Assembly: GCA_049521435.1 (NCBI GenBank)
Contig: JBEKOU010000007.1
Coordinates: forward strand, 63,831 to 127,830
Length of the DNA stretch: 64,000 nt
Reading direction: 5' to 3'
DNA from: Candidatus Dormibacteria bacterium
GTDB taxonomy: Bacteria; Chloroflexota; Dormibacteria; Aeolococcales; Aeolococcaceae
Position numbers and translations under genes: made by a program. This document shows, in pieces, positions 19,349 to 38,768 of the stretch. The notes under the pieces were generated by a model. It saw only the letters and a list, made by a program, of their open reading frames with translations, was not told the DNA's origin and searched no databases. Position 1 is the stretch's first letter; the number at the start of each line of letters is the position of its first letter.

Positions 19349-19422
19349 GGGCGCATAGCTCAGTTGGTACGAGCGCAGCGTTGACATCGCTGAGGTCTCA
19401 GGTTCGATCCCTGATGCGCCCA
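19349..19422 (+). tRNA. tRNA-Val(GAC)
   Basis: Acceptor GGGCGCA/TGCGCCC, D-arm TAGCTCAGTTGGTACGAGC, anticodon stem CAGCG-TTGACAT-CGCTG, GGTTCGATCC T-loop; CCA not encoded. Confidence 0.96.
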
Positions 19423-35955: not shown

Positions 35956-36672
35956 GTGACCGCGCCCGCCAAACACGTTCTCATCGTCGAGGATGAGGAC
36001 TCGATCCGGCAGACGCTCCGCTACAACTTGAGCCAGGAAGGCTTCGTCATCAGCGAGGCGAGCACCGGTACCGAGGCTCTGACGGCGGCGCGCCGCCAGC
36101 GGCCCGACCTCATCCTTCTCGACCTGATGCTCCCCGAGCTGTCGGGGCTCGAGGTGTGCCGGATCCTCCGTCAGGAGATGACGGTCCCCATCATCATGCT
36201 CACCGCCAAGGGCAGCGAGCTCGACAAGGTGGTGGGTCTGCACGTCGGTGCCGACGACTACGTCACCAAGCCGTTCTCGCTCAACGAGCTGCTGGCGCGC
36301 GTGTCGGCGACGCTGCGCCGCGCGGAGATGACCGGCAAGGAGCGCGTCGACGCGCGCGAGATCGAGGAGCTGGACAACTTTCGGATCGACCGCGGCGCCC
36401 GCACGGTGCACGTCGACAGCGAGGAGCTGCACCTCGCGCCCAAGGAGTTCGACCTCCTCTCCCTGCTCCTCCTCAATGCGGGCAAGGTGCAGTCCCGCCA
36501 GGTCATCATCCAGCGGATCTGGGGAAGCAAGTTCTACGGCGACCACAAGACCGTGGACGTCCACGTGCGCTGGCTGAGGGAGAAGTTCGAGCGCTTCGAC
36601 CGGCTGCCCTTCCGGATCACCACCGTGTTCGGCGTGGGCTACCGGATCGACCGGCTCGACCAGCCGGCCTGA
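35956..36672 (+). CDS. phoB: OmpR/PhoB family response regulator
   Basis: IVEDE, LDLMLP, MLTAK, GADDYVTKPF, VDVHVRWLREK; divergent from phoR. Confidence 0.85.
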   Translation: MTAPAKHVLIVEDEDSIRQTLRYNLSQEGFVISEASTGTEALTAARRQRPDLILLDLMLPELSGLEVCRILRQEMTVPIIMLTAKGSELDKVVGLHVGADDYVTKPFSLNELLARVSATLRRAEMTGKERVDAREIEELDNFRIDRGARTVHVDSEELHLAPKEFDLLSLLLLNAGKVQSRQVIIQRIWGSKFYGDHKTVDVHVRWLREKFERFDRLPFRITTVFGVGYRIDRLDQPA

Positions 36673-36702
36673 GCGCCCGCGGGCGCACCTACCATGGGGC
36701 CG

Positions 36703-37344
36703 ATGGGCTCCACGGGCACCGCCGAAGCCGCGAATTCGCGGAACGCTCCGGCACTCGATCGGGGATTCTTCGCCGGGCCGACCATCGACGTGGCCGCTGC
36801 TCTGATCGGGTCGCGGCTGGTCTGCGACCCGGGGACCGCCGAGGAGGTCCGCGCTCGGGTCGTCGAGGTGGAGGCCTACCTGGGGATGGAGGACCCGGCC
36901 TCCCACGCCCACCGGGGCCCCACCCCGCGAGCGGCCATCATGTTCGGGCCCCCCGCTCACCTCTACGTCTACCTCTCCTACGGCATGCACTTCTGCGCCA
37001 ACGTCGTCTGCGAGCCCGAGGGCGTCGCCGGCGCGGTCCTGCTCCGCGCCGCCGCGCTCGAGGTGGGGGAGGAGGTGGTCCGCGCCCGGCGAGCCCGGGG
37101 AGGCCGGCCGCTGGCCCTCGCCAAGCTCCTCCGCGGCCCCGGCAACCTCGGCGCGGCCCTCGGCCTCACCCTGGCGGACAACGGTCTCGACCTCTGCGAC
37201 CCGGGCTCGCGCCTGCGGATCCTGGAGAGGGAGACGGAGGTTCCCCTCGCCATCGCCCCCCGCGTGGGGATCACGCGGGCCGCCGATCGGCCGCTCCGCT
37301 TCGCCTGGGCGGGCCACCCCGCCGTCAGCCGCCCTGCCCCCTGA
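36703..37344 (+). CDS. mpg: 3-methyladenine DNA glycosylase (AAG/MPG family)
   Basis: VEVEAYLG, YVYLSYGMHFC, AVLLRA, GPGNL, PRVGI. Confidence 0.93.
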   Translation: MGSTGTAEAANSRNAPALDRGFFAGPTIDVAAALIGSRLVCDPGTAEEVRARVVEVEAYLGMEDPASHAHRGPTPRAAIMFGPPAHLYVYLSYGMHFCANVVCEPEGVAGAVLLRAAALEVGEEVVRARRARGGRPLALAKLLRGPGNLGAALGLTLADNGLDLCDPGSRLRILERETEVPLAIAPRVGITRAADRPLRFAWAGHPAVSRPAP

Positions 37345-37349
37345 CGCAC

Positions 37350-37380
37350 ATAAAGAAGGGGCCGGCGGTGCCGGCCCCTC
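37350..37380 (-). terminator. Intrinsic terminator (minus strand; may also stop mpg)
   Basis: Minus strand GAGGGGCCGGC-ACC-GCCGGCCCCTT then CTTTAT. Confidence 0.75.
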
Positions 37381-37670
37381 AAATTCATTTGCCGATATTC
37401 GGCAGCCCGACGAAAAGCCGGGCCTTGTGCGGCACCATCCGGTGCCAGGTGGTCTGCCCGGGGCGTCTCGCCTCGTCACCTGCGATCCCGCAGCGCTCTT
37501 GCAATCGACCTACTTGCCGGACCACCTCGAGGGCGGTCTCACGGTGGCGCACGCCGGGTGAGATGGCGAGGGCCCGCGCCGGGCCTCACCTCTCGGCCCG
37601 AGTGGCCCTCAGGAACTCGTATACACCACGCATCGAAGCCCTACCTCCATATGGAACGCGGATGGCTTCT
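37350..37670 (-). ncRNA. Candidate structured RNA (~320 nt) carrying a 15-aa sORF
   Basis: Own promoter and terminator; many perfect helices; no known family recognised. Confidence 0.5.
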
Positions 37671-37676
37671 GTGAGT

Positions 37677-37704
37677 AGGGTACCCCGGCGGACCGGTCTG
37701 TCAA
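37677..37704 (-). promoter_or_regulatory. Sigma70 promoter of the candidate RNA
   Basis: Minus strand TTGACA-N16-TACCCT. Confidence 0.55.
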
Positions 37705-37801
37705 CCGTGTTGTGCGTGACAAGGATCTGGCGCAATCGCATCGAATCGCCCGCCAACCCAGCCATGTGCGCGCCTCGTAGACTGAGAGGCCGGATACAGC
37801 C

Positions 37802-37822
37802 TAGAATCTGAACGTCCGTTCG
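37802..37822 (+). promoter_or_regulatory. -10 element and LexA (SOS) box for yebC-ruvCAB
   Basis: TAGAAT at 37802-37807; GAAC-GTCC-GTTC at 37810-37821. Confidence 0.7.
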
Positions 37823-37836
37823 TCGCCGGAGGCAGC

Positions 37837-38598
37837 ATGTCCGGGCACAGCAAGTGGGCTGGGATCAAGCACAAGAAGGCGATCGTCGACGCCAAGCGCG
37901 GCCAGGCATTCACCAAGGTGACCGCCGAGCTCTCCGTGTCGGCGCGAGAGGGCGGTGCCGACCCCGTCGGAAACTTCCGGCTCCGCCTGGCCATCCAGAA
38001 GGCTCGCGAGGTCAACATGCCCGCGGACAACATCGAGCGGGCGATCCAGCGGGGCGCCGGCGGCAAGGACGGGGTCAAGCTGGAGGAGGTCCGCTACGAG
38101 GGCTACGGGCCCCACGGGGTGGCCGTGATGCTGGATGTCCTCACCGACAACCGCAACCGCACCGTGGCCGCGATCCGCAACCTGTTCACCCGCTCGGGCG
38201 GCTCGCTGGGGGAGTCCAACAGCGTCGCCTGGATGTTCTCCAACCAGGGGATCATCCGGATCGAGACCGGCCAGCGCGACCCCGAGGAGATCGAGCTGGA
38301 GCTGCTCGACCTGCTCGACGTGGGCGCCGACGGGGACATCGCCGTCGACGGCTCTTCCGTCCAGGTGTCGCTGGCGCCACATCTGTTCGAGGAAGCGCGG
38401 CGGCAGGTGGAGGCGGCCGGATACGCGGTGGAGGCGGCCGAGGTGACCATGAACCCGGTCACCTCGGTCACCCTCGACGCCCCCCAGGCCCGGCAGGTCC
38501 TGCGCCTGCTCGACAGCCTCGAGGAGCTGGACGATGTCCAGCAGGTCTACGCCAACGCGGAGATCCCCGACGAAGTCCTCGAGTCGGTCACTTCCTGA
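37837..38598 (+). CDS. yebC: YebC/PmpR family protein
   Basis: MSGHSKWAGIKHKK, YEGYGPHG, TDNRNRT, DDVQQVYAN. Confidence 0.96.
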   Translation: MSGHSKWAGIKHKKAIVDAKRGQAFTKVTAELSVSAREGGADPVGNFRLRLAIQKAREVNMPADNIERAIQRGAGGKDGVKLEEVRYEGYGPHGVAVMLDVLTDNRNRTVAAIRNLFTRSGGSLGESNSVAWMFSNQGIIRIETGQRDPEEIELELLDLLDVGADGDIAVDGSSVQVSLAPHLFEEARRQVEAAGYAVEAAEVTMNPVTSVTLDAPQARQVLRLLDSLEELDDVQQVYANAEIPDEVLESVTS

Positions 38599-38768
38599 TG
38601 CGGGCACCGGAGCCTCGGTGAACAGGTCGTGGCAGGCCCCCGCCAGGGGGCCGGTCTGGGCCCCGAGGCCAAGGAAGGGGTGGCCCGATGAGGAGCGCAC
38701 CGACGTGCGTGACGACGAAGGGACGGGGCCTCTGACGCCGGCATCGGTGTCCAGAGCCGCGAACTGAC

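Follow-up and report, generated by a model that had tools for sequence, protein, structure and literature searches.

We analysed a window of 64,000 nucleotides (nt) from a Candidatus Dormibacteria bacterium (assembly GCA_049521435.1, contig JBEKOU010000007.1, positions 63,831 to 127,830 of the forward strand; all coordinates below are those of the window), and concentrate here on the 492-bp gap between the plus-strand genes mpg and yebC. An earlier note on this DNA had proposed that the gap harbours an unannotated, independent transcription unit on the minus strand, equipped with its own promoter and terminator, and our analysis bears this out. The unit, which occurs as a single copy in its genome, combines a short open reading frame (ORF) preceded by a Shine-Dalgarno (SD) sequence with a long, folded 3' part. 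The genes that flank it and the elements that we could delineate are as follows:

36694-37344, plus strand: mpg (Pfam Pur_DNA_glyco).
37837-38598, plus strand: yebC (Pfam TACO1/YebC).
37704-37350, minus strand: whole unit, with promoter, SD sequence, 15-codon ORF, about 235 nt of folded RNA and intrinsic terminator.
37704-37677, minus strand: predicted promoter, from reading of the sequence, with a -35 element TTGACA (37704-37699), a 16-nt spacer and a -10 element TACCCT (37682-37677).
37635-37669, minus strand: 5' leader hairpin, GAAGCC (37669-37664) with GGCTTC (37640-37635), enclosing the SD sequence GGAGG (37648-37644).
37633-37586, minus strand: small ORF of 15 codons plus stop, MRGVYEFLRATRAER, with the ATG at 37633 and the TGA ending at 37586.
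37591-37447, minus strand: rod domain, from an RNAalifold consensus.
37591-37588 with 37450-37447, minus strand: base of the rod, AGGU with ACCU, the AGGU consisting of the final sense codon plus the first stop-codon base.
37584-37575 with 37465-37456, minus strand: helix P1, GGCCCGG.CGG with its partner strand, beginning directly after the stop codon.
37431-37446, minus strand: hairpin P2, GGCACC-GGAU-GGUGCC, invariant in 16 of 16 sequences.
37405-37423, minus strand: hairpin P3, GCCCGGC-loop-GUCGGGC, with an ...AUCC or ...UUCC loop in relatives.
37390-37404, minus strand: hairpin P4, UGCCGA-AUA-UCGGCA, 96.9% paired.
37389-37381, minus strand: A/U-rich linker between P4 and the terminator.
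37380-37350, minus strand: intrinsic terminator, an 11-bp G+C-rich stem (37380-37356) followed by a U-rich tail.

Reading of the sequence thus confirmed the promoter TTGACA-N16-TACCCT, the hairpin enclosing the SD sequence and the 15-codon ORF that the earlier note had described, and the hairpins that it had placed toward the 3' end (GGCACC-GGAT-GGTGCC, GCCCGGC/GTCGGGC and TGCCGA/TCGGCA) are likewise present, together with the terminator. Transcription would start at about 37672-37670. The TTGACA and the -10 element are kept across the genus, and a TTGAC[ATGC]-N16-TANNNT motif lies at the equivalent position in 38 of 65 distinct homologous loci, the remaining loci carrying promoter variants such as TTGTGG...TATGGT. 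Within the genus, the 5' leader helix is paired in 92.7-95% of alignment cells; the SD sequence GGAGG is invariant in alignments of 19 sequences, and in a set of 65 sequences its first two G and its last one do not vary. At the other end, the terminator lies 12 nt past the stop of mpg, which is convergent with the unit. About 205 nt of G+C-rich helices separate the ORF from the terminator. Of 67 homologous units, 62 have an intrinsic terminator that a script placed 130-263 nt past the Glu codon; its stem sequences differ between genera. Order-wide, at least about 130 nt separate the ORF from the end of the terminator in every unit.

In an alignment of 68 homologues, all from published genomes, the best-conserved block is not formed by the central helices but by ACGGAGGU and the short ORF. 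None of the 17 sequences of the genus has an insertion or deletion in the ORF, and the stop codons TGA, TAA and TAG all occur. The family consensus is M-R-T-V-[WFY]-x-x-[LYF]-R-[HAQ]-[TGS]-R-A-E-x (in short form MRTVWQxLRHxRAEx), with a usual length of 14-16 residues and a few variants lengthened to 20-29 residues. Codon statistics from 60 distinct ORF cores revealed a conservation at the level of amino acids: codon 9 specifies Arg in 60 of 60 cores (AGG in 38, CGG in 18, CGA in 4), codon 12 Arg in all 60 via five codons, codon 13 Ala in all 60 (GCC in 30, GCG in 29, GCT in 1) and codon 2 Arg in 54 of 60 via six codons, while residue 5 is aromatic throughout (W in 35, F in 14, Y in 11; 60/60). 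Mean column entropies at codon positions 1, 2 and 3 were 0.70, 0.58 and 1.07 bits, and the two other frames contained stop codons in 38 and 5 of the 60 cores, respectively. Arginines maintained via synonymous codons, the use of all three stop codons and the entropy pattern indicate that the ORF follows the pattern of a translated gene, which argues against the suggestion that the locus encodes a standalone, purely non-coding RNA. The strong SD sequence and the conserved frame likewise argue for translation. The peptide is presumably produced in the cell, and, judged by its conservation, it looks like the oldest and most constrained component of the unit.

The peptide is hydrophilic, strongly basic and arginine-rich, and contains no hydrophobic stretch. 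In a helical model with 100 degrees per residue, R2, the aromatic residue 5, R9, R12 and A13 would fall on one face, with V4 and L8 on the opposite one, an arrangement reminiscent of arginine-rich nucleic-acid-binding peptides. Searches of Pfam, NCBIfam and PDB sequences with four of the longer natural variants (20-29 residues) returned no match. A likeness to the N-terminus of the genome's own ribosomal protein bL34 required several gaps and was dropped.

The earlier note had also described the RNA as heavily base-paired. Indeed, the 331-nt RNA folds with a predicted free energy of -162.7 kcal/mol (z = -2.97), and none of 100 shuffled sequences reached an equal or better value. As for the arrangement of the helices, we compared two drawings using 16 sequences that had been aligned structure-blind with MAFFT. 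The whole drawing of the earlier note, with its nested central helices, was paired in 87.3% of cells and showed 5 cells changed on both sides, whereas the RNAalifold consensus, a long-range rod, was paired in 97.1% of cells and showed 25 such cells, compared to 9.7 +/- 2.6 in shuffled alignments (0 of 500 as high). The covariation score of the consensus was 0.107, as against 0.016-0.055 when the partners were slid, and covarying columns included 105:210 (UA in 7, CG in 7) and 113:202 (UA in 6, GC in 6), two clean cases located higher in the rod than P1, as well as 144:153. Among the individual helices of the nested drawing, GAGGGC/GCCCTC pairs in 58-60% of cells, TCTCAC/GTGAGA in 73% and AGGTGGTC/GACCACCT in 80%, and 7-8 of the 16 sequences disrupt the outer portion of GGTGAG.../...CTCGCC. 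Compensatory changes in the homologues thus support the rod instead of the nested helices, whose arrangement is particular to this genome and is contradicted by the covariation.

The rod is closed at its base across the stop codon; above P1, it continues through more helices up to an apical hairpin, with a loop of about 17 nt on one strand. In an alignment of the 68 homologues that was fitted to a model, and therefore leans toward structure, 88.6% of cells are paired (shuffles: 75.1%), and changes on both sides occur at 52 of 67 pairs (shuffles: 35.4 +/- 2.8). In this alignment, P1 is 98% paired, P2 is 99.4% paired with five of its six pairs changed on both sides, and P3 is 93.8% paired with both-side changes at seven of its eight pairs. 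P3 is found in all forms of the order that we looked at, with variant stems such as GUCCGAC/GUCGGAC and AUCCGGC/GCCGGAU around the recurring ...AUCC/UUCC loop. P2 is not found at its place in family f2, where another hairpin, GGUGC-CAAG-GCACC, follows P3 at the place of P4. In f2, a much shorter segment also replaces the rod, and in family f5 a single hairpin follows the ORF. As to the two GGAU loops that the earlier note had singled out, one is conserved within the genus and the other is not, and neither is kept beyond a few genera.

Selection on the 3' part is also apparent from its sequence. Among 10 congeners, the mean pairwise identity of this part is 0.845, exceeding that of yebC third codon positions (0.783) and of the intergenic spacer (0.740), which indicates that the tail is under selection as well. 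Moreover, loop or unpaired sequences are kept across genera, namely the ...AUCC/UUCC loop of P3 and, in the rod, CCGUGAGA and GGUCCGG. Compared with the ORF, the tail would be the younger and more plastic half of the unit.

To see the locus in environmental RNA, we inspected Logan contigs over 36600-38700 from four metatranscriptomic runs of four studies (peat, wetland). In run X2, two contigs of the RNA, 37378-37575 and 37546-37655, are identical to the window and have word depths of 4270 and 8499, compared to 13.4, 7.3 and 8.3 for three yebC contigs, two of which are identical to the window. In run X8, a contig covering 37412-37619 with 5 differences reached a depth of 7573, compared to 5.1 on an identical yebC/ruvC contig. 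In X5 and X1, depths were 1305-1603 and 148-250, respectively, compared to 2-10, with pieces that were shorter and less exact. As a contig carries a single depth, without strand or ends, these values are only a rough sign of abundance; by this rough sign, the RNA stands hundreds of times above the mRNAs of its neighbours. The contigs from the RNA libraries cover 37378-37655; positions 37665-37806 and most of mpg are without a contig in the four runs, which is not evidence on the ends of the RNA. The unit would be transcribed from the minus strand, with the ends listed above. In X2, an adapter adjoins 37378, which hints, weakly at best, at a fragment end that is frequent there. Separately, X5 contains a 464-nt contig with a depth of 2119 that exactly matches, at 36600-36712, the 3' end of a response-regulator gene and the start of mpg, with an adapter at 36712; this contig end may mark the end of another abundant RNA.

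We then asked how widely the unit is distributed. Unpublished genomes enter only the tallies of the BLAST search among congeners, of the two model searches and of the CsrA survey reported below, and none was aligned. By BLAST, the whole intergenic region is present at 76-90% identity in 15 of 15 congeneric genomes; a single further genus has part of it. A covariance model of the RNA minus the terminator (R1), which is biased toward the genus-type rod, matched 111 of the 151 genomes from the order, once in each (88/106 in family f1, 22/44 in f2), or 104 of 144 when seven unpublished genomes are left out. The matched stretch is only 185-210 nt long in f2 and in certain f1 genera, and across the phylum, R1 matched family f1 plus one partial, weak match, and nothing else. 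A sequence-only model of the SD sequence and the ORF (R2) detected the ORF in all genomes that were sampled from the order (48/48; 33/33 in f1 and 15/15 in f2, or 31/31 and 12/12 without five unpublished genomes). Within a second order of the class Dormibacteria, it matched 4 of 11 genomes of family f5, and the ORF could be read in all four.

Other candidate matches were discarded. Of nine weak R2 matches in f3 and f4, six were read and all six are spurious, lacking the ORF, and four R2 matches that were read outside the class (17-20 bits) lie within longer ORFs or are without the ORF. Of 39 pattern matches, 19 were true homologues by nhmmer. Two second-site BLAST matches to the rod apex, L021 and L018, gave no Rfam match; L021 lies in apparent G+C-rich coding sequence and is taken as a chance match. 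In two genera, larger genomes contain paralogues of the unit, three in G046 (L167-L169), three in G069 and two in G016 (L170-L171), which are diverged and reside at unrelated loci.

The genomic context of the unit is partly stable. According to tblastn, mpg lies convergent just past the terminator in 67 of 68 loci, while yebC-ruvC is divergent upstream in most f1 genomes and not in f2. In one genome (G127, locus L114), the whole unit is inverted in place between mpg and yebC and points toward yebC. The paralogues and the f5 copies are not adjacent to mpg, the latter being situated between ATP-binding cassette transporter genes and, for two of the copies, an alpha/beta hydrolase gene on the same strand. 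As the unit keeps its parts when inverted or relocated, we regard it as autonomous; its proximity to mpg appears to be inherited synteny, and the two may share a bidirectional terminator.

Back to back with the unit, yebC has a plus-strand promoter, TAGACT-18-TAGAAT, which ends at 37807 and is immediately followed by CGAACGGACGTTC at 37810-37822. This element is a GAAC-N4-GTTC box, which we take to be the LexA type of Gram-positive bacteria, and its location just downstream of the yebC -10 element agrees with the earlier note. Across 17 sequences, all eight bases of the GAAC and GTTC half-sites show no or almost no variation, and this conserved LexA-type box behind the yebC promoter suggests that yebC-ruvC(AB) is probably SOS-regulated. 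Between the two promoters, most congeners share a conserved block, GGCGATTCGATGCGATYGCRCC, at about 37735-37757, which may be a candidate regulator site for one or both of them. In one congener (G010; L006, 1325-1500), the spacer between the yebC and RNA promoters is enlarged by an insert of about 176 bp; in another (G005), it is interrupted by N, an assembly gap.

Comparison with known RNA families gave no assignment. In the 64-kb window, Rfam 15 returned a single match at gathering score, a tRNA at 19349-19422, and in the region of the unit it returned five chance-level matches at E <= 10, with 14-18 bits as against thresholds of 41-70. The signal recognition particle (SRP) RNA, RNase P RNA and transfer-messenger RNA (tmRNA) of the genome are encoded on another contig, so that the unit is none of these. 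The statement that it bears no likeness to RNase P, SRP, tmRNA or 6S RNA therefore stands, and so does the proposal of a candidate new RNA family or dual-function RNA: the unit belongs to no Rfam family, it is independent, with its own promoter and terminator as in dual-function RNAs, and dual-function is the best label for it.

Based on these results, we suggest, with a probability of roughly 0.7, that the unit represents a self-contained gene of about 320 nt, which is strongly expressed and whose transcript serves as the mRNA of a micro-protein and at the same time carries a selected structured domain, in the manner of dual-function RNAs. According to this proposal, the 5' third would be the mRNA, with a near-consensus promoter, the GGAGG sequence and an ORF of 14-16 codons for the arginine-rich peptide, and the 3' two-thirds would form the conserved fold, comprising the rod closed at the stop codon, two or three hairpins, the A/U-rich linker and the terminator. 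With the stop codon located within the base of the rod, a terminating ribosome would have to melt this base, such that translation and the folded state would alternate. The fold would protect the RNA and render it very abundant, and may also bind a partner, possibly the peptide itself. Both the binding targets of the peptide and the fold and the coupling of translation to folding are thus predicted elements of the proposal.

Several observations weigh against this proposal. The rod is short or missing in several f1 genera, in all of f2 and in f5, and its loss in so many lineages indicates that it is not essential for the role of the peptide. The pairing of the SD sequence in the 5' hairpin shows no both-side changes in the wider set of 68 sequences, whose alignment was moreover fitted to the model. 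The ratio of abundances is rough, with one strandless figure per contig. Finally, some homologues have odd start codons, ACG in one f1 homologue (L077/L039) and ATA in two f5 homologues (L162, L163), at a site where the others use ATG, GTG or TTG. These ORFs are otherwise conserved, with synonymous changes, and ACG and ATA may thus be non-canonical start codons.

The most serious competitor, which we consider possible though clearly the less probable account, is that the transcript is the mRNA of a small protein and nothing else, its 3' fold only terminating transcription and shielding the RNA from exonucleases. This account comes close to our preferred explanation, from which it departs solely by granting the fold no separate role, and it is consistent with a peptide that is universal while the rod is variable and repeatedly lost, down to the one hairpin that remains past the ORF in f5. 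However, it does not explain why, throughout the order, the ORF and the terminator's end are always at least about 130 nt apart, nor why the P3 loop, CCGUGAGA and GGUCCGG are kept across genera, as a mere stabiliser would need no such unpaired sequences; the identity of the tail above that of yebC third codon positions likewise speaks for the fold.

Going beyond a dual-function RNA, the peptide and its own RNA might constitute a self-encoded, very abundant ribonucleoprotein, or the peptide might be a micro-subunit, peculiar to this lineage, of either the ribosome or RNA polymerase; in both cases, every round of translation would open the rod and switch the RNA between a messenger and a folded particle. 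We regard this bolder extension as unlikely. If true, it would define a housekeeping system specific to Dormibacteria, and the peptide would be maybe among the shortest universally conserved bacterial proteins.

Conversely, the RNA itself might be the effector, as a 6S-like or Ms1-like riboregulator, a protein sponge or a base-pairing small RNA, with an ORF that is incidental or merely tunes it. The very high contig depth, typical of stable structured RNAs, and the rod-like fold with an internal loop are in line with such a role. In addition, the 6S model RF00013 has no match in the whole genome, although this model recovers only 5 of 14 control genomes and its negative result in the genome says little. 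We nevertheless find an effector RNA quite improbable, as the ORF is conserved at the amino-acid level beyond the constraints on the RNA and is common to all homologues, the rod being the part that is lost. A 6S RNA in particular was rejected, given that RF00013 shows no match in the region at E <= 10, the ends form no end-to-end closing stem, the 5' third of the consensus fold being left to leader and ORF, and there is a one-sided loop instead of a two-sided central bubble, alongside a coding ORF and a dispensable rod.

Ranking after the effector RNA, and again improbable, is a cis-acting leader, in which the conserved peptide would act as a sensor (arrest) peptide, with a ribosome positioned on the stop codon rearranging the downstream helices so as to control read-through of the terminator, for example as antisense RNA into mpg. 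The convergent mpg gene downstream in 67 of 68 loci and the stop codon abutting the first helix would suit this mechanism, as would the conservation of the peptide, since nascent regulatory peptides such as SecM, TnaC and those of the RAPP type are conserved at the amino-acid level. But the strand of the unit carries no gene downstream, G127 has the unit in inverted orientation, the paralogues and f5 copies lie away from mpg, and the terminators are strong, with no convincing antiterminator pairing or other alternative pairing common to f1 and f2. An attenuator-like reuse of the P1 and P3 arms GCCCGG/CCGGGC is seen in the genus and not in f2, and was dropped.

Least credible by far are the type I toxin-like mRNA and the CsrA/RsmA-sequestering RNA that had also been put forward, which could draw on a short ORF with its SD sequence inside a hairpin in this genome and on one GGA-loop hairpin, but which are contradicted by a short, hydrophilic, basic peptide that is found in 48 of 48 genomes and mostly in single copy, unlike accessory toxin loci (an antisense RNA was not specifically searched for), by the finding of CsrA (PF02599) in 0 of 41 genomes of the order, 20 of them at least 90% complete, nor in the unit's own, 89% complete genome, and by a single GGA loop that is conserved in some genera only.

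Having weighed these alternatives, we compared the unit, read as a dual-function RNA, with characterised systems. RNAIII, SgrS, SR1, AzuCR and VcdRP contain a short ORF in a long, structured, abundant regulatory RNA, and their base-pairing targets have been demonstrated. The unit resembles them in its short ORF within a long, structured, abundant RNA with its own promoter and terminator, and differs from them in that an activity of the RNA is here suggested by conservation, and in that the peptide is shorter than most and represents the more conserved half. RNAIII/delta-haemolysin, SgrS/SgrT, SR1/SR1P, AzuCR/AzuC and VcdRP belong to the dual-function RNAs, a class that is the subject of two reviews (PMC12310071, PMC12612679). 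Spot 42 of Escherichia coli is likewise a small transcript, serving at once as a structured RNA and as the mRNA of SpfP, a protein of 15 amino acids (PMC8916003). Our unit is similar in being a small, independent, structured transcript that encodes a 15-residue peptide; unlike Spot 42, to which it has no sequence or Rfam relation, the Dormibacteria RNA is about three times longer, its ORF lies 5' of the fold, no base-pairing target is known for it and no gene for Hfq was found in its genome (one genome, 89% complete). The unit is without homology to any named dual-function RNA, and its distinctive traits are an ORF that comes first, a long rod closed at the stop codon and a peptide that appears to be the older part.

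The RNA also recalls 6S RNA (RF00013) and the actinobacterial Ms1 RNA, being abundant and mostly a double-stranded rod with an internal loop, but it differs from both in the lack of a model match, of a closing stem and of a two-sided bubble, in the presence of an ORF and in a rod that many lineages dispense with. The phage lambda N N-terminal motif is an arginine-rich RNA-binding peptide, and bTHX, bS22 and bL37 are very small basic ribosomal proteins. The peptide resembles these in that its arginines and aromatic residue would share a helical face, a likeness that is compositional and geometric only.

Dormibacteria (formerly AD3) include no cultured, genetically tractable member, and their RNA biology is almost unexplored; a full-text literature search for Dormibacterota together with "small RNA" gave no match. 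This locus yields a new RNA family and a new family of proteins of 14-16 residues that is invisible to gene callers, both apparently conserved throughout an order. The abundance of the transcript in peat and wetland metatranscriptomes permits its direct study from environmental RNA. The unit also offers a natural example of how coding and folding share a short transcript, and of which part came first, which here looks to have been the peptide.

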